The notes: generated from the sequence alone by a model not told the origin. A stretch of 64,000 nt of DNA from a virus (IMGVR_UViG_3300009078_000075:18518-82517), one strand, 5' to 3'. Positions 1 through 62,548 are shown, numbered from the stretch's first letter. A program made the numbers and translations.

Positions 1-887
1 TACCTTCTACTTGCTTGATAATGTTCAATTACAGGGACTTCATTTTTTAATGAATCAAAAATTTGACAATAACATTTTGGAAGATGTTCAATATCAATTC
101 TTCTTTTTTGAACACATTCTTTTAAAATATTTTGATCCCAAACATCTTTATTTATAAGACATTCATTTTTCCACATTTCTATTAATTTTAAACTTTCCAA
201 TGTATTTTTAAAATACAGGGTTCCGGATAAAAGATTTCCACTTTCTGAAAAATAAGCAGCAATATCCTTTTTTATATTTTCAAACAATTCAGGGTATTTT
301 TTTATAACTGCATCTGCATCAAGAAAAACAATAGGACGATTAAATAATAATAATGCCCTTTTAATCACCCAAGGTTTATAATGGGTATTTAACACCCAAT
401 TATTTTTATCTTTTAATTCTTCAATATAATAACTTAACCCGTATTTATTTATAGATGTTAAAAGATTTTGAAGTTCTTTTTTATATTTATCATTTGTAAA
501 ATAGGAAACAATTATAAATTTTGTATTATCGGTTATATTTGAAATAATCGATTTTACTTCTTTATCTGTTTCTTCATTTATTGTATTGTCAATGATTAAT
601 TCTTTTATTACTTTTTTTGTTTCAATATTTTGTTTAAGTGATTTGGTTTCTTGTACAAATAATTCAGTTTTTTGTTTATATGAGGAAATATCCAATTTGA
701 GGGATTTAACCTCCTGTTCATGAAAAGTTATTTTTTGTTTAAGTAATGATATCTCTTGTGTTTCTAATTCATTTTTCTTTAATTTAATTTGTTTTAATAA
801 CTCCCTTTGTTGGGGCCAGGGGAGAGATTTTATATCAATATTTAATAACTGATCTAATGAAAAATTCAGAAAATTATAATTATTCAT
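1..887 (-). CDS. Glycosyltransferase (nucleotide-diphospho-sugar transferase-like, GT-A) with N-terminal coiled coil; runs off the window edge
   Basis: Hand-translated, absent from the ORF track. ATG at 887 overlaps the upstream stop; open to position 1. Motifs YKPWVIKRAL, IVFLDADA (DxD), LSGTLYF, WDQ, IEHYQASRR. Confidence 0.75.
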   Translation of the reverse strand, partial: MNNYNFLNFSLDQLLNIDIKSLPWPQQRELLKQIKLKKNELETQEISLLKQKITFHEQEVKSLKLDISSYKQKTELFVQETKSLKQNIETKKVIKELIIDNTINEETDKEVKSIISNITDNTKFIIVSYFTNDKYKKELQNLLTSINKYGLSYYIEELKDKNNWVLNTHYKPWVIKRALLLFNRPIVFLDADAVIKKYPELFENIKKDIAAYFSESGNLLSGTLYFKNTLESLKLIEMWKNECLINKDVWDQNILKECVQKRRIDIEHLPKCYCQIFDSLKNEVPVIEHYQASRR

Positions 888-1581
888 TATTTTTCCTCAT
901 ATAATATATTTTATTATTTAAATAAGAAGTTAATTTAAAATTATATTTTTCAATTAAGTTATTTAACTTATCTTTACTATAAACATTAACATAGGCCCCT
1001 TCATGATTAAATCCATCCCGATCATTCCATGTAAATTTTTCTTCACCGGGGGGGCAAAACCATGAAATGATACACAATTTCTTTGTTGCCTTTAATATGT
1101 TTTCAAAAAATAGGTAACAATTATCAGGATGTTGATGTTCTAACACATGCCGAGTATATATGATATCTGATTTTAATAATGAATTAAAATCCCCTACTTT
1201 AAATTTATAATTATTATATTTACAAAATTCCTCTCTTGCAAATTCAACAAATTGAGGGGTAACCTCTTGTCCCGTGTATTCTATTGTTTCTATATCATGA
1301 AGTAACATGAAACAATGGGCAAAATCATAACATTGTCCAAATCCCAGTTCCAAAAAAGTTAATGGAGATTTATAATAAAAAGCAGAATTTGTAACTGCAC
1401 TTTGAGGGGGGGAAATACTTTCCAAATATGAATGAAGCAATTCATATACCTTTTCCCGATCTTCTTGATGAAAGGTATGAGTCAGAAATTGAATCCATTG
1501 TTCTTTTGTTATTTTAGATTGCCATGGGGCAGTAAAATCATGAGCTAAAAAATTTGAATCTTTTTGTGTTTCTGTTTTCAT
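880..1581 (-). CDS. Class I SAM-dependent methyltransferase
   Basis: FLELGFGQ motif I, VGDF, DIIYTRHVLEH. Confidence 0.75.
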   Translation of the reverse strand: MKTETQKDSNFLAHDFTAPWQSKITKEQWIQFLTHTFHQEDREKVYELLHSYLESISPPQSAVTNSAFYYKSPLTFLELGFGQCYDFAHCFMLLHDIETIEYTGQEVTPQFVEFAREEFCKYNNYKFKVGDFNSLLKSDIIYTRHVLEHQHPDNCYLFFENILKATKKLCIISWFCPPGEEKFTWNDRDGFNHEGAYVNVYSKDKLNNLIEKYNFKLTSYLNNKIYYMRKNNE

Positions 1582-1748
1582 TATTTATTTCCTATCTGCC
1601 TTCGGCGATCATCAATTGCTTTTTGAATTAAAGGAATTTGATTTTTTTGTGCCCTTTGTTTGGCATTCCCTCCTGCATATCTTGTCCAATTTCCTTCTTG
1701 TCGAAAAGTTATCTTTCTAAAATCTTTTCCTTGAATTATTTGTCCCAT
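1581..1748 (-). CDS. Small basic hypothetical protein (55 aa)
   Basis: Hand-translated MGQIIQGKDFRKITF...; GGAG RBS; stop overlaps next ATG. Confidence 0.55.
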   Translation of the reverse strand: MGQIIQGKDFRKITFRQEGNWTRYAGGNAKQRAQKNQIPLIQKAIDDRRRQIGNK

Positions 1749-1756
1749 GTTATCTC

Positions 1757-1948
1757 CTATTCTAATGTATTTAAAAACGGATTATAATATTTTGAATCTT
1801 TATTAATATATTCTACTTTACCATTTTTAATAAGCTTTTGTCTTCCAGTATTCCCTTCACGAACAACAATATAATCATCCTTATCATCGATTAAATCTTC
1901 CTGTTCCCACCTTTCCGCTATCGGAGGTTGTTTTGGTAATTTTTTCAT
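1757..1948 (-). CDS. Small protein, candidate immunity protein for the ART domain
   Basis: 63 aa directly after the ART gene, AGGA RBS; function inferred from position only. Confidence 0.45.
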   Translation of the reverse strand: MKKLPKQPPIAERWEQEDLIDDKDDYIVVREGNTGRQKLIKNGKVEYINKDSKYYNPFLNTLE

Positions 1949-1961
1949 ATTATTATTCCTT

Positions 1962-3116
1962 TCATTTAATTATTATTGAATCAAGAGGTGTAATTTTTTT
2001 AAGTTGAGCTTGAACAAAAAGAATTGGTTCTTTATTCAATCCTAATTTTATTTCTCTTTTTGATAAAATTTCCAATACATTTCTTTTACTAATAATAACT
2101 TCTTTTTCACTATAATATTCAGATAAAAATTTAACAGAACTTCCAGCAGGAGTTCCCCCAATTATATGTAATAAAACCCCTTTTCCATATTGTTTATGAT
2201 TTAAAAATAATTTACTACTGTTCATTGCTATTTTTTTATCTGTACTTGTTGAAGAAAAAGCAGACAATTGATAAGTGTCCCCTTTTTTTAAATTTTCAAA
2301 ATCACCACGTTTTCCTCTCATTCCTCGCCATAAATCCCCTGTTGGCATTCTGGGAGCTAAATCAAGCCATTTTTCAATAAGATTTGCTTTTTTTATTTCA
2401 TTTGGATCATCATTTTTTCCTTTTTGTGCTTTTCTTAAATCTACACTTGTTCTGGTAAATTGTAATAAACCATTATGTAAATTAATTATTTCATCTGTTT
2501 GTTCTTTTGATAATTTAAAATATTCTTTATTAAATAAATCTTTTGCAAGAGTATTATATTGTTCAGGATATGACATTTCATCATTTTTTGAATAATGTCC
2601 TCTTATAGGTTTATTATATAAATAATGATCTTTTAATGATTTTTTTTCTTCTTCCAATTTTTTAATTTCTTTTTCAAGTTGTTTTTTCATTTCTTCCGCT
2701 TGACGTATTACTTTTTCTCTTTCTTTTTTTTCTTCCACTTTTTGTTTTTCCTGCAAATGTTTTAACTTTGCATCATTCAAATCTTTTGCCGATAATTTAT
2801 ATTTTGTTTTTAAATCATTAACAGTTAAAATTTTATTTGATTTTATATCTGAAAATTGTTCAAATTTTACTTTACCTTCTTTATATAAAGCATATTTTGT
2901 TCCCCCCAATACCTCTTTCTGAAAATCCCCTGATTGCCTTTCAAACCAGTCACTATAAGAAACCGATCCTGGTACATTTTTATAAACATATTTTCCCTGT
3001 TTTTCATCCCATTCTTTTGCTGGTCTCTCAATTTCTTCTAAATTTTCAAGCCGGGTAACAGCAGAGATAATACATCGACAACCAGGATGAAGAGGCGGAA
3101 TAGGTAATTGTTTCAT
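1962..3116 (-). CDS. C-terminal part of MuF/gpF domain fused to VIP2-like ADP-ribosyltransferase
   Basis: N-terminal PPLHPGCRC (MuF end motif) and SYSDWF...LG..KY segment; ART R-S-E motifs LWRG, FSSTS, SEKEVI. Confidence 0.8.
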   Translation of the reverse strand: MKQLPIPPLHPGCRCIISAVTRLENLEEIERPAKEWDEKQGKYVYKNVPGSVSYSDWFERQSGDFQKEVLGGTKYALYKEGKVKFEQFSDIKSNKILTVNDLKTKYKLSAKDLNDAKLKHLQEKQKVEEKKEREKVIRQAEEMKKQLEKEIKKLEEEKKSLKDHYLYNKPIRGHYSKNDEMSYPEQYNTLAKDLFNKEYFKLSKEQTDEIINLHNGLLQFTRTSVDLRKAQKGKNDDPNEIKKANLIEKWLDLAPRMPTGDLWRGMRGKRGDFENLKKGDTYQLSAFSSTSTDKKIAMNSSKLFLNHKQYGKGVLLHIIGGTPAGSSVKFLSEYYSEKEVIISKRNVLEILSKREIKLGLNKEPILFVQAQLKKITPLDSIIIK

Positions 3117-3301
3117 TTTATTTCAATATATCCTTTATAATCCTTGCCTTCAATAATTTTTATTATCTCATCATAAGATATATTAAATATGCTCTCATCG
3201 GGGGAAAGTTCTTGTATAATATCCCCAATATATGTTTTCCCATATGCCCCTGCCTGTACAAATAAATTACCATTTTTCATTTTAGATATAAACAATTTCA
3301 T
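3113..3301 (-). CDS. Small protein (62 aa), candidate immunity protein for the zincin domain; paralog of 39336..39533
   Basis: ATGA-coupled at both ends; MKLFISK...DYKGYIEI shared with the 39336 ORF. Confidence 0.6.
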   Translation of the reverse strand: MKLFISKMKNGNLFVQAGAYGKTYIGDIIQELSPDESIFNISYDEIIKIIEGKDYKGYIEIK

Positions 3302-4770
3302 TTTATTTCCACTCCAAATCTCTTTTTTAAAAAGTCTTTCATATATGATGCCGTATTCGGCCAATCTTCATAATAAGAATCTGGAAGTATCCCCAAATTA
3401 CTTGGTTGTCCCATCATAACAGCAAATAATTCTGCAAATGTTTCTCTTTGACCAATCCCCTTTTGTTGAAGAAGATATGCATATTTATTTTGATTATAAG
3501 TAAGCCCTGTTTGTTGAAAAGTAGCTTGATCCCAAGGATCTTTTTTATTAGCAATATTAGCCCTATCTTTTATATATGCATCTACAAAACCTGTATCATG
3601 ATTACTAAATACTCCATATTGTATCTTTGGAAAAAATTCACTTCCTAAAAGTTGATCTATTGCATGTCCTGATTCATGAAATGTCATTCCTTTTACTCGT
3701 GATATAGATTCTTTATATACCTTTGATCTATCAATAGAACCTATTTTTGTTACTTTTTCAGCAAATGACATTTGTTTATTATTCCAGTCATAAATACCGC
3801 TAACATTATCAAAAGATGCGTCTTTACCCCATCCCGTTGGTTTTTCATTTATAAGATGTGGATTTATATTTGTTTGGAATTCCCCTATTTTAATAGTAGT
3901 TCCATATTTATTTAAAGCATTTTGTATTGGAACAGGAATTGTTTTTATATAATTATTTATATTAATTACGAAATCAGCAGAAACATTTTCACCAGCAACT
4001 ACAGTAATCGGAATTTTTTTCATTTCTTCTTTTTTCATTTCTTCTTTTTTCATTTCTTTTACTTTTTTTAATTTCAGAATATCCCCTGTTTTTCCATCAA
4101 GTTTAGCACAAAGCAAACATGTTTTATGATCAAGGGTTGCCACAAAGCGGTATGTTTCAATAAATTCAGAATTATCATTATAACATTGTTGTAATGCTTT
4201 ATTTGATGCATCCATTATTGCCGTTCTTGTTAATGTCTTTGCCTGTGCTGAGGACATTCCAAATGTATTTTTGATATCCCTTGAAATATCATTTATTCCT
4301 TTTCCGAGAATTAACCCGGACATAAGGTTATGTTTAATCCCCTGTAAAGTATTTGCTTCGAGTTTTGAAATCCAATTTTCAAGGGTATTTCCACAAATAG
4401 GATTTGTTAAAATAGAATTTAACGCTTCACCCGGGAGACCCATTAAAGGGGCATTTTCAGCAATTGCTTTTATCCCTGCATCTGTCTTTATTGCATTTGA
4501 AATTGAATTATACTCAACTTGGGCTGTATCAGACATGGCGTTTCTTATCACGTCATTTATTTCTTCATATTGAGATTGTAATATAGCAATGGATTCGGCT
4601 AACACTGCTTCATAATGTGCCCTTGTTATTTCATTCATTTTTTTTGATTCCAATTTTTTTAAAATATCAAATTGGGCTTTTCTTAATTCTTCAAAGACAT
4701 CTTTAGTTACCCCATTTTCAAATTGTTCAAGAAAATGTCTATTTTTAATTATAAGATCATTAATAGTCAT
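3298..4770 (-). CDS. Minor head protein MuF/gpF (N-terminal part) fused to anthrax-LF-like zinc metallopeptidase
   Basis: Follows portal; ATLDHKTCLLCAKLDGK MuF motif; HESGH zincin motif plus ETFAELFA. Confidence 0.8.
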   Translation of the reverse strand: MTINDLIIKNRHFLEQFENGVTKDVFEELRKAQFDILKKLESKKMNEITRAHYEAVLAESIAILQSQYEEINDVIRNAMSDTAQVEYNSISNAIKTDAGIKAIAENAPLMGLPGEALNSILTNPICGNTLENWISKLEANTLQGIKHNLMSGLILGKGINDISRDIKNTFGMSSAQAKTLTRTAIMDASNKALQQCYNDNSEFIETYRFVATLDHKTCLLCAKLDGKTGDILKLKKVKEMKKEEMKKEEMKKIPITVVAGENVSADFVININNYIKTIPVPIQNALNKYGTTIKIGEFQTNINPHLINEKPTGWGKDASFDNVSGIYDWNNKQMSFAEKVTKIGSIDRSKVYKESISRVKGMTFHESGHAIDQLLGSEFFPKIQYGVFSNHDTGFVDAYIKDRANIANKKDPWDQATFQQTGLTYNQNKYAYLLQQKGIGQRETFAELFAVMMGQPSNLGILPDSYYEDWPNTASYMKDFLKKRFGVEIK

Positions 4771-4782
4771 ATATAATATGTA

Positions 4783-6306
4783 TTATTCATTAGAAAAAGG
4801 AATCGAAGAAACTTCCTCTTCATTAATTTGTTCCTTTTCTTTTTCTTCATCAAAATTTCTTGGTAAAATTTCTCCCTCTTTCATTATATTCCATAATGTT
4901 GATTGACTAAGGTCTTTTGTGCTTCTCATATTTAACAAAGTGGCAAGTAATTGTGCATCAATTTGATCGACATCATAATCTAAATTATACCCAATGGTAA
5001 TATTATCAATTTCTGATTCATTTAACTGCATCCATTCACCGGCAAATTTATGACATTGTTGTTCAGCAATAGCAAAATTAATTGATCTCCTTTGTAAATC
5101 CGACAATGAATCCAATCGATCCATTTTTTTTGCTTCTGCTGTTTCCCTTTGATTTGATAAATTTCTAACCTGTTTTAAGGCAATATCATATATTGCAGTT
5201 AATATATCTTGTTCTGATAATCTTATTTTTTCAATCGATTGTCCACTTATTTCAACATATTGAAGTTTTGAATTAGCATCGGGATTTGAAATTCCCATAT
5301 CTTCCGATACCTTAATAGCATCTTGTGTATCCCATCCTGCAAAAAATAATAATGGGAAGGCACTCATTACCTCTGCATAATGCCGAGCCGAATGTTTATT
5401 AAAAAGCTCAATACACAAATCAGTAATATCTGCAATTGCAGATTTTCCTACCCCAAAAGATATTTTTTTATTGTAAAAAGGAACTAATGGAATTTTTCCC
5501 AATGATATAGGAATTTCCCCAACAAGAACCGCCTGTTCTTTATCTCCTGTTTTTATATATTGCCAAATTTGATGTTTATTGGGATATAAAATCCTATATT
5601 GTGTCACTGTTTGTTCGGGAAGAAACGGAACATTAAATGTAGACACATTTTCCCTTATCACAGCATATATGAGTTCTTGTTTCCCATTGTTTATATTAAT
5701 CCCCCAGTCTAATACATTTCTTGGATCAATGGGGACATAATATGGGAATAACCCCGCTTTTTGTTCATCTAATATACTTACATTTTCTTGTTCCATTAAA
5801 ATTGTATTAACAGGAAATTCAACAAGGACCCAATATATTCCAAATACTTGTGCCTTTTCTGTAATATCAGAAAAAAATGAATTTCTACTTGTTCCCTTTC
5901 CATCTACATTATAAACTAATTCATCAAGACGATTTGGAAGAACCCGTTCTGGTTCTTTCCTCCATAAATGCCCTTGAAAGGTTTCAATTATTTGGGCACA
6001 TTTATTGTAATAAACAGCTTCTTTTTTTCGTGTATCATATTTTTTTTGATGTTCATTCGGTCGCTTTATTAAATAAGTATTATCAGGGGCATTTTGAATT
6101 TTCCCCCCGCCCTCAAAACAGTCAGATAATTTTTGCCAGCAAGGGATTAATAAATCATAATCTTTATTTTTTTTCTCTAAATCAAGCTCCTGATTATTTA
6201 CTTGTTGTTTTGCCTTTAAAAAGGATACACTTTGTTTGTGCACTGTTTCAACATAAGAAACTTCTTGTCCATCAATTACCGTTGTTTTTTTTCTTTCAAT
6301 TGCCAT
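4783..6306 (-). CDS. Portal protein (DUF4055-like)
   Basis: Position after TerL; YDTRKKEAVYYN, NVDGKG, IPLVPFY; 507 aa. Confidence 0.85.
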   Translation of the reverse strand: MAIERKKTTVIDGQEVSYVETVHKQSVSFLKAKQQVNNQELDLEKKNKDYDLLIPCWQKLSDCFEGGGKIQNAPDNTYLIKRPNEHQKKYDTRKKEAVYYNKCAQIIETFQGHLWRKEPERVLPNRLDELVYNVDGKGTSRNSFFSDITEKAQVFGIYWVLVEFPVNTILMEQENVSILDEQKAGLFPYYVPIDPRNVLDWGININNGKQELIYAVIRENVSTFNVPFLPEQTVTQYRILYPNKHQIWQYIKTGDKEQAVLVGEIPISLGKIPLVPFYNKKISFGVGKSAIADITDLCIELFNKHSARHYAEVMSAFPLLFFAGWDTQDAIKVSEDMGISNPDANSKLQYVEISGQSIEKIRLSEQDILTAIYDIALKQVRNLSNQRETAEAKKMDRLDSLSDLQRRSINFAIAEQQCHKFAGEWMQLNESEIDNITIGYNLDYDVDQIDAQLLATLLNMRSTKDLSQSTLWNIMKEGEILPRNFDEEKEKEQINEEEVSSIPFSNE

Positions 6307-6328
6307 TTTATTTTGTCCTTTCTAAAAA

Positions 6329-8692
6329 TTAAGCTATATAAACATCGGAAATATTAAAAGTATGGGCTAATCTTGATCTTTTTCTAAACATACAAGCATA
6401 ACGTACTTCATCTGCTATATGATCCTCTTGACTATTTGCTATATCATCGGGATTTTTATCATCCCGAACAAGAAAAGGAACTGTTCTAATAAAATCAGTA
6501 CATGTTGCTAATACATATAATAAAGGTCCCTGTGATTCCTCTTCCCCTTCAAATCGTCCCCTTAATTGTTGCCATCCTGGTATTCTTGATTTATCAGATT
6601 GTACAAATAAATCATACCCCATTTGTTTAGCTATTGAATCTCCACCCCGCTCTTCCCAAATTTGATTATCTGCGGGCCCTTTCCTTATATTTAATGATGA
6701 CCATTTTTTTTCTCTTTCAATTATTCCTTCCCCAATTTTTTTATTAAGTAATCGTAGCCCTGTATTTGGATTAATCGCTTTTTTATCATTTCCATACCAT
6801 TCAGAAAATCGAATTAAGGTTCCCCTTGGATATGTTACCCCATTTGGTGCAGGGGTCCCATCTGATTCTGTCCACCATCCAACTGAAAATGGGGACCCTG
6901 ATCCCCAGTCAAAAGAACGAAAACAGAACCAATGTCTGGGAGGTATAAAACATTTTGACAAAGGAATTACATTTTTTGATGAGTTCCAAACATCGGAAAA
7001 AAATCCTCCAACATTTACATCCCATCGTCCATATACCCATGCTTTTACAAGTTCTTTATCGGGAAGAGCCAAAAGACGGGATCGATATTCGGGGTCCATA
7101 TTCATAAAAGGAATATTTTCAAGCATGTTTCCAAATATAGAGACCCTTTTATGTCCTTTATCATTAATAACCGTTCCCCATGGTGCAGGATCAATAAAAT
7201 AATTTTTAACTGCACTACGTCCGATTCCCCATGGATTCCCTGTGGACCGGATACGGATAGGAATACCCATCCCCGTTGCTCGGTTACAGCTAATCATACT
7301 TTGATAACAATCCATGTCTGGCCAATTTAATAATTCTTCCCATCCGATCCACGAATAACTATTTCCTGATAACCAAGTAGATCCATTTTGTCTAATAAAA
7401 AAATTATGATTTTTTTCAACACCTAAACAATAAACTTTACCATTATATTTTATTCGTTTAATTTGTGATTTTAATTTCTTTTTATTTAATTTTCTAATTC
7501 TATTGTCAGTATATAATTTAAGTTCTTTTTTTGGATTAAAAGCAATTGTATATAAAATTTTATTTTTACAACCTTCTTTTTTTTGAATAGCAGAATAAAC
7601 AGAATACCCGAGTTTTACCCCAATTTCTTGTAAATCATCACTCATTTTTTTAGATATTGTATATATATAAACTCTATTTTGCTGTTTTGTTCCATCTCCA
7701 AGTGCATATGCATCAAAAAAAGCTTGTAAACATTCTCTATTACTTTGTTTTATATTATTAGGAATATATTTATCTTTACATTTTCCAAATTTAGAAAGGT
7801 ATAAATATTGTTTTTTATCTCTCCAAACAAATCCAAAATTAGTTTTATTATATTTAATTTTTAAATTGTCAAGAAGATTTTGTATAATTTTTACATTTTG
7901 TTCCTTTTGTTGACAAATTCCTATTGTATAATGTTTTTTATAAAGATTGGTGTATCCCTCTGATAAAAACCATCCCATAAATTTACAATAATTAATATCT
8001 AAATTCTTTCCTTTTGTTAATTTCCATCCACTATTTTTTATTTTAGTTATTCTTGGTAATTTTGAATATTCTATCAATTCGTTTGAGATTGAAGGAAGTT
8101 TATGTTCTGGGGTAAAAGACATATATTTTCCACGACCATTATAAATTATTAAATCTCCATTATAATCTTCTATTGTTTTGGTTTTAACCATTTGATAAGA
8201 TAATTCATTTTTTTTATTAGTACTTAAAACTTTTTCTCCTATTTTTATATTTTGAATAGGTATCCACCCATTTTTTGTTAAAATATCCCCTTTATCTACA
8301 CAATGCCCATGATAGTTATCGTAGTCATTTCGATCCCAAAAATATCGTAAATATAAAAGTTCCCCCCCCGGAAAAGCCCATGTATAATCTGCTTTATTAA
8401 ATTCTGCCTTTGGACATGCCATCCGAAACCATTTTTTTGATTTAATAACAAGATCTGATAATTGTTTATATGTTCGCCTAAAAAGAATCCCTCTCCAATC
8501 TGAGCCATACCCTTTTCCAACCTCTTGAAAGAAATCCATGATTAAAGCATCGGTCTTACCAACTGCCCGTGTACCTGTGTATAGTACTTGATGATAAGGA
8601 CATGAAAGAAACAAACATTGAGATCCCGGATTTGGTTTCCAAACAACACTTAAATTATCAAGATTTTTTTTATTATTAAGTTCTCGGTTCAT
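6329..8692 (-). CDS. terL: Terminase large subunit containing an intein
   Basis: GTRAVGKT Walker A, WEEL Walker B, STGNP, SFDWG and EDHIADEVRY RNase H-like motifs. Confidence 0.92.
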   Translation of the reverse strand: MNRELNNKKNLDNLSVVWKPNPGSQCLFLSCPYHQVLYTGTRAVGKTDALIMDFFQEVGKGYGSDWRGILFRRTYKQLSDLVIKSKKWFRMACPKAEFNKADYTWAFPGGELLYLRYFWDRNDYDNYHGHCVDKGDILTKNGWIPIQNIKIGEKVLSTNKKNELSYQMVKTKTIEDYNGDLIIYNGRGKYMSFTPEHKLPSISNELIEYSKLPRITKIKNSGWKLTKGKNLDINYCKFMGWFLSEGYTNLYKKHYTIGICQQKEQNVKIIQNLLDNLKIKYNKTNFGFVWRDKKQYLYLSKFGKCKDKYIPNNIKQSNRECLQAFFDAYALGDGTKQQNRVYIYTISKKMSDDLQEIGVKLGYSVYSAIQKKEGCKNKILYTIAFNPKKELKLYTDNRIRKLNKKKLKSQIKRIKYNGKVYCLGVEKNHNFFIRQNGSTWLSGNSYSWIGWEELLNWPDMDCYQSMISCNRATGMGIPIRIRSTGNPWGIGRSAVKNYFIDPAPWGTVINDKGHKRVSIFGNMLENIPFMNMDPEYRSRLLALPDKELVKAWVYGRWDVNVGGFFSDVWNSSKNVIPLSKCFIPPRHWFCFRSFDWGSGSPFSVGWWTESDGTPAPNGVTYPRGTLIRFSEWYGNDKKAINPNTGLRLLNKKIGEGIIEREKKWSSLNIRKGPADNQIWEERGGDSIAKQMGYDLFVQSDKSRIPGWQQLRGRFEGEEESQGPLLYVLATCTDFIRTVPFLVRDDKNPDDIANSQEDHIADEVRYACMFRKRSRLAHTFNISDVYIA
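7361..8302 (-). mobile_element. Intein (314 aa) with LAGLIDADG homing endonuclease
   Basis: GH|CVDKGDILTKNGW N-terminal junction; TPEH block B; FMGWFLSEG and FFDAYALGDG; VYCLGVEKNHNF...SGN|S C-terminal junction. Confidence 0.9.
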
Positions 8693-9216
8693 TATTCTTT
8701 ATCATTCATTTCCTCAATTTTGACTCTTGTTTCCTTCATCTGGGTATCCCAGTCTTTGTCATTAAAAATACCCGGTACTACCACAACTCCAGTTTTTGTT
8801 TCAACATCAATATGAATATTTTGATTTGGATACATATTTTTCATTTTGGCGCAGGAATCAAAAAATTTATGAATTACATTATAATCTTTTTCTCGATTTA
8901 TTTCATTACCATTTTTATCATAAATACCCTTATCTGCTTCAAGTCCCTTTTTTGCTACTGAAATAAGATAAGGGGTAGTAATTCCCTGTGCTTCCATTTC
9001 TTCTGCAATAGTAATTCTAACTTTTTTCATTACGGCATCGGCCCGTACTGATGCCCTGTTATAATCATTTTTATCGGATAAGTCATATCCTTTTACGGCG
9101 GCAATTGCTCGGATCATGTTACCACCATTTTTAAGGTACTCTTCAACAAACCTAATATCAGAAGGTTTCAAATTTTCAAATCTTGGATTTAATTCTCGTT
9201 CTTGTTTTTTACTCAT
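8692..9216 (-). CDS. terS: Terminase small subunit
   Basis: Directly upstream of TerL; RFVEEYLKNGGN...A...GY HTH-like start; GVVVVP tail. Confidence 0.75.
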   Translation of the reverse strand: MSKKQERELNPRFENLKPSDIRFVEEYLKNGGNMIRAIAAVKGYDLSDKNDYNRASVRADAVMKKVRITIAEEMEAQGITTPYLISVAKKGLEADKGIYDKNGNEINREKDYNVIHKFFDSCAKMKNMYPNQNIHIDVETKTGVVVVPGIFNDKDWDTQMKETRVKIEEMNDKE

Positions 9217-9312
9217 TTTTTCTCCTTTTTTTATAAAAAACTCAATTAAAATGTATTTTCATATTTAATATACATAAAAATTTAAAAAAAATGTATTTAT
9301 AATATATGATTC

Positions 9313-9490
9313 TTTTTCACATAATTACATCCCTTTTCATATCCCTTTTCCTTTTTCTTGTACTATTATATAAAAATAAACATATATTTATAGTATCCTC
9401 TTTCTTTTTTCTGTGCATATTTCTTGCAATATATAAATATTAACCGATTGAAAAAGCAAAATATGCCGATATATATAATAGAGAGGGAAA
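9313..9490 (+). repeat. ~180-bp regulatory module duplicated at ~39131-39306
   Basis: Shared TTCACATAATTACATCCCTTTTCA...CTGTGCATATTTCTTGCA...ACCGAT...GCCGATATATATAATAGAGAGGGAAA. Confidence 0.85.
9443..9490 (+). promoter_or_regulatory. Class A promoter-like motif ACCGAT-N16-GCCGATATATATAATAGAG
   Basis: Copies at 9443, 27552, 32115 (short spacing), 39259, 39547 and 63184-63231 on minus; always upstream of a co-oriented gene. Confidence 0.75.
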
Positions 9491-9519
9491 ACAGCAACCT
9501 TTAACACAGGAGAAAGACA

Positions 9520-9762
9520 ATGCATACAATGGAACATCTTGAAATGGAATTAAAAGATGCTCAATATGTTTATCATTTATCCCGTTTAAAAGCAGATCAC
9601 ATTGAAAAGGAATTGAATGACGCCAAACGGCAAGTTGAAATTCTTTCAAACCTATTGAAAGAAAAAAGGGAAGAGGAAACAAACAATCATTTAAAAGTAA
9701 TTGAAATTCATAGAAAAACAATTGAAATCATTCAAAAAGAGGAAAATTGTTATATTAAGTAA
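9520..9762 (+). CDS. Hypothetical coiled-coil protein
   Basis: AGGAG RBS after class A motif. Confidence 0.6.
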   Translation: MHTMEHLEMELKDAQYVYHLSRLKADHIEKELNDAKRQVEILSNLLKEKREEETNNHLKVIEIHRKTIEIIQKEENCYIK

Positions 9763-9834
9763 CATTTAAATATAAGGTTAATGAGAGAGGTTTTTGAAAG
9801 AAAACAGTAACCTTTAAATATAAGGAAATTTTAA

Positions 9835-11805
9835 ATGAAAATTGATGAAATTGTTCAATCGAATGAATATACAATTTCAGCATTATTAGCTCTTTACGGG
9901 TATCAAACACAAGATGAACAAACTTCAGAATACACAACATCATTAAATGGAGCAGGATTTAATAAAATTGATGCCCCTATTCTTTCCTCTATTTCACAAT
10001 TTTTTCTTAAAAATGGATTTTTAACCGAAAAACAATTATCCCTTGTAAAAAGATCAATTAAAAAATATCATACACAAATTGAAGCATTTGAATTAACTCC
10101 TGTAAAAACAAAAGAACCAAAAACAAAAGAACCAAAAACACAAGAAAATGGGGGGACCCCTTTTGAGGGAATTAAAAAGGCAAGACTCGAAAAAGATTTT
10201 ATTTATCTTAAATTTCATTTTGCAAAGGGAGATAAAAAATTCTTTGAAATTCTTACAAAAGTAAAAACATTAGCATGGAGACAATGGGACCCCGATACAA
10301 AAGAATGGAAAGTAAGGCGTTCCCTTGAAACATTAAAAAAATTACATGAGTGGGAATTTAAATTTGATGTTGAATTACAGAAATGGTATGAATCAGTTTT
10401 TAGCAATAACATTAATAAGGATCTTGACGTTCCCATTGATATGTCTCTTTACCCATTTCAAAAAGAAGGGGTAGCATTTATTGATCTTAAAAATGGAAGG
10501 GCATTAATCGGGGATGAAATGGGACTTGGGAAAACCTGTCAAGCAATCGGATGGACATCCCTTCATCCTGATAAAAAACCCGTACTTATCATATGTCCTT
10601 CCAATGTCAAATTAAATTGGAAAAGGGAAATCAAAAAGTGTCTTCCCCGGGCAAGGGTTGAATTGGTAGAAGGACGGGATTATAAGGGAGCAATGGACGG
10701 TGATTATGTTATTTGTAATTATGATATAGTGTCAAAAAATAAGGAAAAACTCATATCCACAAATTTTAAAGTATTGATACTTGATGAATGTCATTATATA
10801 AAAAACTATAAAGCAAAACGAACTGCAGTAATTACTGAAATCGGAAAGGCAATTGAACATGTTATTTGTTTATCAGGGACTCCGATTGTTAATCGTCCCA
10901 TTGAATTTTTTACAGCATTAAATTTACTACGTCCTGATTTATTCCCCTCATATTGGGAATATGTTAATAAATATTGTCCGGCAGATGGATGGACAAAGTG
11001 GCAAACAACAAAAGGTTCTGCAAATGAAATTGAACTTCATAATAATTTAATTCAAACCATGATGTTAAGACGATTAAAAAAAGATGTTTTAACACAGCTT
11101 CCGTTAAAGCAACGGCAAGTTATCCCTATGGAATGTGATTTGACAGAATACAATAAAGCGGAAGACGATTTAATTTCATGGATGAAAGAAAATGGATATG
11201 GTAAAGACAAAATTTTTTGTGCTATGAATGCTGAAATTATTACAAGGATTGAGTATTTAAAACAAATTGCAGTAAAGGCAAAATATGAATCAATTGTTGA
11301 TTGGATTAATAATTATTTAAGCTCAGGGAAAAAATTAGTTATTTTTTGTACTCATCATGCAACGATTGATTTTTTAATGGAAACATTTAAAGGAATTGCA
11401 GTAAAATTAGATGGGCGTGATAATATGGGAAAAAAACAAATTGCCATTGATCGATTTCAAAGTGATCAAGAAATTAGACTTTTTATAGGAAATATAAAAG
11501 CGGCAGGAGTGGGAATTGATGGTTTACAAAATGTAGCAGAGGACACATGTTTTATTGAGTTAGGATGGACCCCTGGTGATCATAATCAAGCAGAAGATCG
11601 AGTACATCGAATTGGACAAGAGGCAGATTCAGTGACAGCTTTTTATTTATTGACTGCTGGTACAATTGAAGAGGAAATTGCAGAATTAATTGATAAAAAA
11701 AGAAATGTATTAAATCAGATTTTAGACGGAAAAGTGCCCGATGAAACCGAATTGATAAGTATTTTATTAAATAACCTTTTAAATAAGGAGACAAAAAATG
11801 GATAA
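9835..11805 (+). CDS. SNF2-family (HARP/SMARCAL1-like) helicase
   Basis: LYPFQ, DEMGLGKT, DECH, LSGTP, MLRRLKKDV, QAEDRVHRIGQ. Confidence 0.93.
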   Translation: MKIDEIVQSNEYTISALLALYGYQTQDEQTSEYTTSLNGAGFNKIDAPILSSISQFFLKNGFLTEKQLSLVKRSIKKYHTQIEAFELTPVKTKEPKTKEPKTQENGGTPFEGIKKARLEKDFIYLKFHFAKGDKKFFEILTKVKTLAWRQWDPDTKEWKVRRSLETLKKLHEWEFKFDVELQKWYESVFSNNINKDLDVPIDMSLYPFQKEGVAFIDLKNGRALIGDEMGLGKTCQAIGWTSLHPDKKPVLIICPSNVKLNWKREIKKCLPRARVELVEGRDYKGAMDGDYVICNYDIVSKNKEKLISTNFKVLILDECHYIKNYKAKRTAVITEIGKAIEHVICLSGTPIVNRPIEFFTALNLLRPDLFPSYWEYVNKYCPADGWTKWQTTKGSANEIELHNNLIQTMMLRRLKKDVLTQLPLKQRQVIPMECDLTEYNKAEDDLISWMKENGYGKDKIFCAMNAEIITRIEYLKQIAVKAKYESIVDWINNYLSSGKKLVIFCTHHATIDFLMETFKGIAVKLDGRDNMGKKQIAIDRFQSDQEIRLFIGNIKAAGVGIDGLQNVAEDTCFIELGWTPGDHNQAEDRVHRIGQEADSVTAFYLLTAGTIEEEIAELIDKKRNVLNQILDGKVPDETELISILLNNLLNKETKNG

Positions 11806-12352
11806 GAAAATTGAATTTACAAAAGAAATGGAAAAGATTTGTTGTTACTGGGCTTGGAAATATACAACAAAAAGTCATATGTTATTTGACGAATTAAAAT
11901 CAGTTGCATTTTATACTTTTTGTGACGTTCGGAGAACATATTTAGAAAATCATTCACAGGCCCCATTTAAGGCGTATCTACAAAGGGCATTAGATATTAC
12001 CTTAAAAAGGGCCGTTTCAAATGATTTACGTTTTACTAATGTCTCATATGATTCAGTATTTAATGTTAAGGTTCCCTGTAAATATTATCCGCAGGATATT
12101 TCAGAATGTGATTTTTTACAACTGGATCAAATGGACAATGTTGATGAAATTCTTAGTAGGGAACAATTAATAGAAAACCTTTCATGTGAATCAAAGGAAA
12201 TGATTTACATTATAATAAAGAATCACGGAGATATTTTTTTAGGACGAAAAGAAACAAAACAAAGGGTTTTAAATTATTTTCTTTCCCTTAATTGGAAAAG
12301 AGGAAAAATAACCAAATGTTTTAATGAAATTAAATCAATTTTGTCATTATAG
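11798..12352 (+). CDS. Putative phage sigma-factor-like protein (sigma70 region 2-like)
   Basis: [11 protein letters not shown]...Y...APFKAYL...L resembles sigma region 2; no canonical region 4 evident. Confidence 0.5.
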
Positions 12353-39335: not shown

Positions 39336-39533
39336 ATGAGATTGTTCATATCAAAAATTAACGGTAGTGAGAATTTATTAATTGAAGCAGCTGTATTTAG
39401 TAATGGTGTTACTGATGAAATACTTGAAGAGTTGGCTCCTGGTGAAATGATTTTTGGCGTATCATTTGAAGAAATCTTGGAACTTGTCGAAGCGGAGGAT
39501 TATAAGGGGTATATAGAGATTGATGTAAATTGA
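39336..39533 (+). CDS. Paralog of the candidate MuF-toxin immunity protein
   Basis: MRLFISK...EL.P.E.IF..S.EEI....E..DYKGYIEI matches 3113..3301. Confidence 0.7.
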   Translation: MRLFISKINGSENLLIEAAVFSNGVTDEILEELAPGEMIFGVSFEEILELVEAEDYKGYIEIDVN

Positions 39534-39631: not shown

Positions 39632-40000
39632 ATGAAAGACTCCCTGGTCGAACAGAAAATTAATGACATATTTGATAAAGCGGAACAGGTATATGGACGT
39701 TCCTTTAATCGTCCTGCCCTTTATTTTACAGAGGGCAAGGCAATGATATTGGCAATGGCTTATGTGAAGTCAAATTATATTAATTTCAACCCTTATTTCA
39801 TGGGGATTGCATTGGAAACCGTGTTGAATGAAACCGTGATTCATGAAGCTGCCCATATTATTGCCCATCAACTTTATGGATGTAAAGCATTTGGACATTC
39901 CCCATTGTGGGCAGGTGTAGCAAGGAAATTAGGATTAGAAAAGCCTCAAAGGATAACCTTAATAGATTTTCCACAAAAATTAAAACCCATCCGATATTAA
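39632..40000 (+). CDS. SprT-like metalloprotease
   Basis: TVIHEAAH, GH...W. Confidence 0.78.
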   Translation: MKDSLVEQKINDIFDKAEQVYGRSFNRPALYFTEGKAMILAMAYVKSNYINFNPYFMGIALETVLNETVIHEAAHIIAHQLYGCKAFGHSPLWAGVARKLGLEKPQRITLIDFPQKLKPIRY

Positions 40001-61165: not shown

Positions 61166-62548
61166 CTAAGATGTTATTAAATGATGTTTTTTCGCATAGC
61201 ATTCCATCGCCATTTTGAAATAACTTTTAAATTCAATATCAGTCATATTATGTTTCATTCGATTGATCCCTGCATCTACCCATTGTAAATTGTTAATATC
61301 GTTGCTACCGCCTTTACTACGGGGTAAAATATGATCGAGATGCATGTTCTTTTCATTTAATGGACGCCGTGAATAAACACATTTAATCCCTTGATCCTTT
61401 AGCTTTTGTAACAATTGAACAGCTAAAAGATCCTTGTCACATCCTTTAAAACACTTACCATAAAGTCTTCCCTTTATCAAGCGAAGCATTTTTTGTTCGT
61501 CAATAATGGAAGGGGCCTCATCTTTTCCATAACAAAAATAAGCGAGTTCTTTCAAATAAATTTCAAACTCGTCATTAGTCATGCCATTTTTCATGTAATT
61601 GACATATCGATCTATCCACTGTAAATTCAAAGTAACATTTTGACCGCCCTTACATCGGGGTTCCTTATGATCAAGTGAGGCATTTATCCCCAATATCAAT
61701 GGAATGCCCATAGACCTACATGTAGAATCATCTTTGAATTCCTGTATTAATTCATCGATTGAAACCAATGAAATATCACCATGGCAATTATTATCATCTA
61801 TACAAACATTATACACTTGATGTTCAACATAATGAAATTTACACAATCCCCGTCCGATTGCAGGTTGCCCGCATCGGGTTCCATTTACTTTTTTAAAGCA
61901 AATTTTATATTTTTTACGTTTTTTAATGGTTTTTTTAGTAAATTCATTATTTTTAGTTGCACATTCAATGCAATAAAGTTTATTCCCTTCTGCAATTGGG
62001 TTTTTGCCACACCATGTGCAAATTCCCATAGCTTTTAATTTGTTTTGAATTTTTTTAACAGATTTATTATGTTTGGCTACATGATCTTTACAATACTGTT
62101 TATTCCCTTCTGCTAAAGGATTATTACAATCACGGCATTTTCTTTGAGCATTACGGGCATCACCACGTTTTTTACCGGTCTCATTATGTTTGCTCGAATG
62201 AAACACACAATAGAATTTTCCTTCTACGGCGGGTTCTTTACATTTGCCCCAAGTGCAAATTCCCAATGCGATTTTTGTTTCACGTTTTTTCTTTAATTCT
62301 TCCCTATGTGTTTCACGAAATTTTCTATTGGCCTCCTTACCTTTGATCAAATGAAATGTACAACAGGTTTTCCCTTCTACGGCGGGTTCTTTACATTTGC
62401 CCCAAGTGCAAATTCCCAATGCAATTTTTGTTTCACGTTCTTTCTTTCTTTCTTCACTATGGGACGCATTATACTCCCGATGATATTCCTTTTTTTCTTC
62501 CTTTGTCATTGCCATTTGCCGTTTTCCTTTATCAAGTATCCCCTGCAC
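61166..62548 (-). CDS. Tandem-HNH endonuclease with N-terminal Cys/His repeats (probable start 62515)
   Basis: LDHKEPRCKGG.N...NLQW and LDHILPRSKGGSN...NLQW; repeated C..(..)C..P...G...C..H units. Confidence 0.8.
   Translation of the reverse strand: MQGILDKGKRQMAMTKEEKKEYHREYNASHSEERKKERETKIALGICTWGKCKEPAVEGKTCCTFHLIKGKEANRKFRETHREELKKKRETKIALGICTWGKCKEPAVEGKFYCVFHSSKHNETGKKRGDARNAQRKCRDCNNPLAEGNKQYCKDHVAKHNKSVKKIQNKLKAMGICTWCGKNPIAEGNKLYCIECATKNNEFTKKTIKKRKKYKICFKKVNGTRCGQPAIGRGLCKFHYVEHQVYNVCIDDNNCHGDISLVSIDELIQEFKDDSTCRSMGIPLILGINASLDHKEPRCKGGQNVTLNLQWIDRYVNYMKNGMTNDEFEIYLKELAYFCYGKDEAPSIIDEQKMLRLIKGRLYGKCFKGCDKDLLAVQLLQKLKDQGIKCVYSRRPLNEKNMHLDHILPRSKGGSNDINNLQWVDAGINRMKHNMTDIEFKSYFKMAMECYAKKHHLITS

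Follow-up and report, generated by a model that had tools for sequence, protein, structure and literature searches.

A MuF head-protein domain divided between two coupled phage genes, one continuing into a predicted zinc peptidase and the other into a predicted ADP-ribosyltransferase

MuF-type head proteins have been proposed as a vehicle for enzymes that enter the cell together with phage DNA, and the attachment and release of this cargo are largely untested. In temperate phages, to which MuF toxins are almost confined, ADP-ribosyltransferases account for 14% and metallopeptidases for 20% of the MuF toxin domains (Jamet et al. 2017, PMC5576092). The zincin-like metallopeptidase MPTase is also the main hub domain of phage polyvalent proteins, and its common phage type has an Asp three residues after the HExxH motif (Iyer et al. 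2017, PMC5512222). Here we describe a locus in a 64,000-nucleotide stretch of DNA from an uncultured freshwater-sediment phage (hereafter the window), which corresponds to bases 18518-82517 of the 82.5-kb IMG/VR record IMGVR_UViG_3300009078_000075 (~90% complete by CheckV). The MuF domain, elsewhere a single chain, is here distributed over two coupled genes, each with its own enzyme, a variant that we did not find in the literature.

In several respects the locus resembles the MuF toxins of temperate phages (PMC5576092): a MuF part precedes a variable C-terminal toxin, small genes lie downstream, and the gene adjoins that of the portal. It differs from them in the MuF domain itself, which in those toxins is whole and on one chain, with no split described, whereas here it extends over two genes that each encode an enzyme. 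A literature search likewise returned no published split MuF. The near-exclusive link with temperate phages may be a further difference, as the 82.5-kb record, ~90% complete, yielded no tyrosine integrase (serine recombinases were not searched). The locus thus shows toxins borne by MuF in a freshwater-sediment phage that may not be temperate.

A first, sequence-only reading of the window had described four open reading frames (ORFs) and had claimed that a MuF domain is interrupted between its two Cys pairs. All four ORFs are present on the minus strand: ORF A (3298-4770 (-), 490 amino acids (aa)), the small gene s1 between the MuF halves (3113-3301 (-), 62 aa), ORF B (1962-3116 (-), 384 aa), and the small gene s2, which is 3' of the ADP-ribosyltransferase (1757-1948 (-), 63 aa). 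Profile matches confirm the interruption. The Pfam family Phage_Mu_F (PF04233) aligned to residues 144-241 of ORF A over positions 2-95 of its 112, with 42.3 bits for a cut-off of 29.6 (46 bits in a genome-wide search), and the final 17 positions, which hold the PPxHxxCRC part, are missing from this protein. ORF B opens with MKQLPIPPLHPGCRC, which is the MuF part that ORF A lacks. The PHROG 241 profile (head morphogenesis, 679 positions) was cut cleanly between the two proteins, with positions 16-249 on ORF A and 258-463 on ORF B. By these profiles neither ORF holds a complete MuF domain on one polypeptide, as the intact relatives do, and a profile search found no second MuF in the 82.5-kb record. 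The N-terminal MuF part (4078..4770 (-), ORF A residues 1-231) comprises a helical region and, after it, ATLDHKTCLLCAKLDGKTGDI, in which C218 and C221 make up the first Cys pair. The C-terminal part (2766..3116 (-), ORF B residues 1-117) starts with the motif given above, which includes the second Cys pair at C13 and C15, and continues into a conserved WF..Q..F..VLG region.

Intact one-chain relatives locate the break precisely. Three of them, the protein P0005 (360 aa) and the MuF proteins of contigs L002 (2452-3516, 354 aa) and L009 (5995-7059, 354 aa), are colinear with residues 1-231 of ORF A and then with residues 5-117 of ORF B; the MuF part of ORF A is 44% identical to P0005. P0005 has LDGMIRDTVIEFGITPPAHFLCRC across the break region; in the window, LDGKTGDIL leads into the insert, and (MKQ)LPIPPLHPGCRC comes after it. 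The alignment around the Cys motifs thus puts the break within the loop of ~10 residues that separates the CxxC and PPxHxxCRC Cys pairs. The AlphaFold model of intact P0005 had a predicted local distance difference test score (pLDDT) of 66 overall and of 70-86 in the MuF core; in this model the break falls in a loop (residues 234-251, confidence below 50) between the CxxC helix and the CRC strand. Neither sequence nor fold searches returned a solved MuF-like structure. Scans of viral, metagenome and genome contig collections for split relatives returned only intact MuF relatives (L002, L008, L009 and L006), among which L002 is a syntenic viral contig and the MuF of L009 is a near-twin of that of L002. 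Contig L009 (JBHLRA010000001.1, 84.6 kb, a size fitting a virus), which carries its intact 354-aa MuF in the same gene order from portal to methyltransferase, is the closest relative of the head module in the genome collection. It was binned in a metagenome-assembled genome (MAG) of 'Candidatus Thorarchaeota archaeon', which could hint at an Asgard-archaeal host or be a binning error.

The split is not restricted to one assembly. ORF A, s1, ORF B and s2 were each found on 5-6 contigs of 82-92 kb (up to 91.6 kb) produced by the JGI/IMG and Logan pipelines, including a one-residue variant of ORF B. More importantly, a diverged sister lineage has the same organization. Its proteins P0004, P0157 and P0158 (478 aa) contain the half-MuF, a Lys/Glu-rich linker and the same peptidase, and lack PPxHxxCRC. 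The complementary protein P0003 (408 aa) starts with MKTLPIPPMHPGCRC and ends with a PI3/PI4-kinase-like domain (PF00454). P0157 and P0003 are both recorded on a 14150-nt Logan contig, so they are probably neighbours. P0004 and ORF A are 84% identical in the MuF part and, as counted from the alignment, ~44% in the peptidase. The three variants of P0004 differ by ~3 substitutions in the MuF part versus ~11 in the peptidase, none of them disruptive and with no truncation. Both lineages retain the four Cys and the start codon 4-5 residues before PP. Judging from these sequences, conservation across the lineages extends to the split, the start site and all four Cys, and the two MuF pieces appear as the slowest-evolving parts of the split module. 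The recurrence of the same split in a diverged lineage and on several contigs suggests a working variant of the protein rather than an assembly error.

The part of ORF B that follows the MuF piece (1965..2765 (-), residues 118-384) comprises a charged, coiled-coil-like spacer (residues 118-200) and a predicted R-S-E ADP-ribosyltransferase (Pfam PF01129 / PF03496) of the arginine type, as had been proposed from the sequence. The Pfam ART family matched with 30.5 bits for a cut-off of 22.3, ADPrib_exo_Tox matched too, and R264, S289-T-S291 and E337-K-E339 align with the same motifs of the solved arginine-specific Vis toxin (4xzj). ORF B and P0003 are 69% identical over their first ~157 aa and have unrelated ends, an ADP-ribosyltransferase in one and a kinase-like domain in the other. 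A conserved N-terminal part with a variable toxin end is the pattern of MuF polymorphic toxins, which suggests that ORF B carries a swappable toxin and bears out the polymorphic-toxin behaviour first attributed to it.

In ORF A, the first MuF half is followed by a Lys/Glu-rich linker (4015..4077 (-), residues 232-252, LKLKKVKEMKKEEMKKEEMKK). A 15-nt tandem repeat (family D20) at 4019-4049 encodes the (K)EEMKK units of this linker, and the linker at the same place in P0004 is longer, rich in Lys and Glu, and non-repetitive. The remaining 238 residues (3301..4014 (-), residues 253-490) form a predicted zinc metallopeptidase domain of the type of anthrax lethal factor (LF) and the Pro-Pro-endopeptidases (PPEP), that is M34-like. 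It has HESGH at 3664-3678 (within HESGHAID), a downstream ETFAE, and a third-ligand Glu443 at 3442-3444. The sequence of the domain had by itself no match in Pfam or PDB, and none to Pfam ATLF (PF07737) even at E<=10; in a tblastn search for close phage relatives, ORF A gave matches in its MuF part alone (<30% identity), and the peptidase by itself gave none. An exhaustive HMMER search with the domain collected 335 relatives. Among the 58 that were scanned, ATLF was present in 34 and Phage_Mu_F in 20; H365, E366, H369 and E443 are invariant in these 58 sequences, and at least 90% of them also have D372, the Asp that follows HExxH by three residues. An AlphaFold2 model of the domain, built from an alignment of 74 sequences, had a pLDDT of 93.4. 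The top 40 Foldseek matches in PDB were all PPEP-1/2/3 or anthrax LF, with probability 1.0, template modelling (TM) scores of 0.55 by query and 0.70 by target, and identities of 12-20%. In addition, the profile of the relatives matched PPEP-2 at E=2e-12. The confident model thus argues for an LF/PPEP-like fold with HExxH and downstream Glu ligands, and together with the invariant zinc ligands it supports the early suggestion that an HExxH zincin follows the first MuF half. The domain shares fold and ligands with PPEP-1/2/3 (Zmp1) and anthrax LF (family M34), and differs from them by its low identity (12-20%), by a sequence that does not by itself match ATLF, and by its tether to a phage head protein.

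Comparison with single-chain relatives shows where the arrangement departs from theirs. The domains and their setting are those of polyvalent proteins (PMC5512222): the same MuF, ART and MPTase hub domains, HESGHAID, and a late virion gene context. In the peptidase relatives that bear MuF, this domain is complete and the peptidase is C-terminal, often behind another effector. For example, P0007 and P0009 are single chains of MuF, ART and peptidase, P0052 is a single chain of MuF, Zeta toxin and peptidase, and P0006 has a MuF tail, ART and peptidase. Among the 150 best relatives, a half-MuF leading directly into the peptidase was found only in ORF A and P0004. Hence, the window uses the usual three hub domains, but its MuF loop accommodates the peptidase and three genes take the place of one, in contrast to the complete MuF first and the peptidase last of the single chains. 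Each chain here has one enzyme domain, unlike P0007, P0009 and P0052, which carry two after MuF.

A simple internal translocation of the peptidase was considered as the origin of this layout and dropped. No specific relationship links the ADP-ribosyltransferase of ORF B to its counterparts in the MuF-ART-peptidase relatives (E=0.09), so that the layout is not derivable from such a move. The G+C content at third codon positions (GC3) is 0.13 in the peptidase and 0.09 in the ADP-ribosyltransferase, against 0.17-0.21 in the MuF pieces and the portal, which is consistent with the effector parts being acquired cargo. In several other MuF-peptidase relatives (P0015, P0024, P0060 and P0100) there are inteins in or beside MuF, at different profile positions (about 35, 84 and 108), and inserted elements seem to settle in MuF frequently.

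Each effector ORF has a small gene behind it, s1 after ORF A and s2 after ORF B, as first noticed. At either boundary of s1, with ORF A and with ORF B, an ATGA combines the stop codon of one gene with the start codon of the next; s1 is preceded by GGAG and s2 by its own ribosome-binding site (AAGGA). Neither protein has a relative in Pfam, PHROG or Atlas, and s1 has none in IMG/VR or in the MAG that contains L009. Within the window, however, there is a paralogue of s1 (39336..39533 (+), 65 aa), which is 45% identical to it (E=1e-20). This paralogue lies 99 nt upstream of a gene for an SprT-like zinc peptidase (39632..40000 (+), HEAAH, Pfam SprT-like E=3.8e-10), and the genes for the scaffold (DUF6651) and the major capsid protein (Gp13-like) come directly after the pair. 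A small protein of the s1 type thus adjoins a zincin twice, so that a role of s1 as partner of the peptidase, or as its inhibitor, is plausible. As for s2, it is absent from the toxin-less L002 and L009, whereas the 55-aa gene that follows it is kept there. This fits a partner that arrived with the ADP-ribosyltransferase, and s2 is a candidate immunity protein or partner of this enzyme.

The junctions around s1 share a sequence. The 14-mer GAAATAAAATGAAA is found at 3296..3309 (-), at the stop of ORF A and the start of s1, and at 3111..3124 (-), at the stop of s1 and the start of ORF B. These are its only two exact copies in the window, where they flank s1 as direct repeats. Beyond this pair, the repeats detected were all AT-rich and of low complexity; neither terminal inverted repeats nor clear target duplications were among them. 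Folding of the sequence that follows each junction yielded z-scores of +0.4 to +0.8, i.e., no stable structure. No terminators were found between ORF A, s1, ORF B and s2.

We favour, with a probability of roughly 0.55, a selected gene fission after which the MuF pieces re-associate and the virion carries a constant peptidase and a swappable toxin. A single head gene of the MuF (SPP1 gp7-like) type would have undergone a nested insertion and then fission, with the break between CxxC and PPxHxxCRC. The first of the resulting genes would provide the helical MuF part with the first Cys pair, a flexible Lys/Glu linker and the LF/PPEP-like zinc peptidase. The second, after the coupled s1, would provide the rest of MuF, namely the second Cys pair and the conserved C-terminal region, as a 'handle' on a swappable toxin, which would be the arginine-type ADP-ribosyltransferase here and the kinase-like domain in the sister lineage. 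The three genes would be translated in a coupled manner from the terminase-portal-MuF operon. The portal or procapsid would then be the place where their MuF pieces re-associate non-covalently, held by paired strands and probably by a shared metal site, and peptidase and toxin would both travel in the virion and be ejected along with the DNA. Under this hypothesis s1 would most likely act as partner or inhibitor of the peptidase, and s2 as partner or immunity protein of the ADP-ribosyltransferase.

Phage genes have been split before. NrdA of Aeromonas phage Aeh1 is reportedly divided by mobE, and a T4 topoisomerase subunit is also said to be split, the products reassembling in both cases. The MuF locus would resemble these examples in that a single-chain protein is encoded by two adjacent genes with foreign coding DNA between them, and that its function presumably persists through non-covalent assembly of the products. 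It would differ from them in the insert, which there is reportedly a homing endonuclease gene and here comprises a small gene as well as an effector-type domain fused to the upstream half, and lacks a nuclease.

The role of the peptidase deserves separate consideration. The sequence-only reading had proposed that two different effectors, both toxin-like, may be loaded into the virion. Its description of an interrupted MuF domain and of ORF B as toxin-like agrees with our results; its view of the peptidase we would modify. From the comparison of sequences, we favour the view that it is at least as likely to be a processing or accessory enzyme as a second toxin, because it is constant in both split lineages and terminal after other effectors in the relatives, as discussed for polyvalent proteins by Iyer et al. 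(PMC5512222).

Several observations weigh against the favoured reading. Some MuF relatives, such as P0090, lack one or two of the four Cys, so that the domain does not generally depend on a zinc site. The model of intact P0005 is only moderate (pLDDT 66), and no relatives of s1 and s2 were found outside this phage. Finally, MuF/gp7 is reportedly not strictly essential in SPP1, and a phage could therefore tolerate a broken MuF.

In a different interpretation, the locus is the scar of a recombination event: a cassette with the peptidase and s1 would have destroyed MuF, ORF B would be a displaced orphan toxin module, and the phage would manage without MuF. Polymorphic toxin loci are reported to gather displaced C-terminal cassettes in which a piece of the conserved region survives (Zhang et al. 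2012, PMC3482391). Like the orphan cassettes of contact-dependent inhibition (CDI), Rhs and Maf systems, the downstream toxin gene of our locus opens with a short conserved piece and has a small gene behind it. The lower GC3 of the cargo parts and the 14-nt direct repeats flanking s1 point in the same direction. Yet, such orphans usually lack translation starts and duplicate part of an intact upstream gene, and they are expected to decay, whereas here the upstream gene lacks exactly the piece carried downstream and both are conserved. The halves are in fact the best-conserved parts between lineages (84% and 69%, against ~44% in the peptidase), their motif residues and exact start are kept, the tight ATGA coupling is retained, and the genome has no second MuF. 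We thus regard a scar as unlikely. It is also conceivable, if rather doubtful, that the two halves work independently, with the C-terminal piece as a self-sufficient docking handle for the toxin and the N-terminal piece bringing the peptidase, and that no MuF is reconstituted. The conserved part of ORF B (117-157 aa) is long enough for a domain of its own. Against this, the P0005 model places the CRC strand (252-257) after strand 208-214 and the CxxC helix, in one small sheet region, the four Cys are divided two and two between the chains, and both pieces co-occur in both lineages.

The identical 14-mer at the two junctions, found nowhere else in the 64 kb, raises the question of recoding. A -1 slip of tRNA-Lys on A_AAA_TGA at both GAAATAAAATGAAA sites would produce one polyvalent protein of 936 aa whose MuF loop contains both the peptidase and s1. 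Each downstream ORF is indeed in the -1 frame, so that translation would resume at the ATG codon after a slip on A_AAA, and single-chain MuF-ART-peptidase relatives exist. Nevertheless, there is no canonical heptamer, the 'EI' before the stop is also kept in the s1 paralogue, for protein reasons, and s1 is preceded by GGAG. We consider recoding highly improbable, above all because there is no stable structure downstream of the junctions and both downstream ORFs have ordinary ATG starts. An artefact, either an assembly chimera or an unrecognised spliced intron, is the least credible explanation. All sampled words of the window are present in two freshwater-sediment runs (X1 and X2), but these may both be the source sample, which is an argument for it. 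An assembly chimera, an alternative raised when the locus was first described, is very unlikely given that the same proteins recur on 5-6 contigs of 82-92 kb from two pipelines and that a diverged lineage has an orthologous split. As for an intron, an Rfam scan of positions 1-12000 at E<=1 returned neither an intron nor any other RNA family, and the intervening DNA continues the upstream reading frame into a domain with wide conservation and a well-folded model.

Returning to the favoured reading of a selected fission, a more elaborate version of it can be imagined. MuF would be a two-piece docking platform with the inter-Cys loop as its natural loading site; its helical half with the PPEP-like peptidase and its zinc-knuckle handle with the swappable toxin would come together in the procapsid around a metal shared by the two chains; s1 would restrain the peptidase in the producing cell; and the ejected peptidase would cleave the handle, possibly at its conserved Pro-Pro, and so release the toxin in the new host. 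This scenario is speculative and, taken as a whole, improbable.

A naturally selected split of MuF would mark a loop of the domain that tolerates insertion, and it suggests that the C-terminal, Cys-bearing piece may work as a detachable handle for exchangeable toxins. With only two proteins, it would also provide a simple setting in which association, metal dependence, packaging and release could be studied.

The MuF genes belong to a tight late operon on the minus strand, from 9216 down to 3. In order, it comprises a 174-aa gene, the large terminase, the portal, ORF A, s1, ORF B, s2, a 55-aa basic protein, a methyltransferase and a glycosyltransferase-like gene. The MuF locus directly follows the terminase and portal (DUF4055, 4783-6306 (-)) genes, as in L002 and L009, which is the position by which members of the MuF/SPP1 gp7 group are recognised. 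The large terminase (787 aa, 6329-8692 (-)) is interrupted by an intein with a Hint-like start at about residue 131 (CVDKGD...), which carries a LAGLIDADG homing endonuclease (Pfam LAGLIDADG_3 at residues 321-384). With the split MuF, two neighbouring head genes of this phage thus carry inserted elements. The 55-aa basic protein (1581-1748 (-)), which comes after the MuF module, is ~41% identical to its counterparts in the toxin-less L002 and L009, where the methyltransferase is also next. Counts of promoters and terminators were at the level of shuffled sequences. In blastn searches against phages there was no close relative, runs X3-X6 contained only small shares of the words of the window, and no RNA run is listed as containing it. 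Outside this operon, a 460-aa protein (61166-62548 (-)) with a C-terminal HNH endonuclease domain is encoded where the tail module ends, in the opposite orientation to that module.

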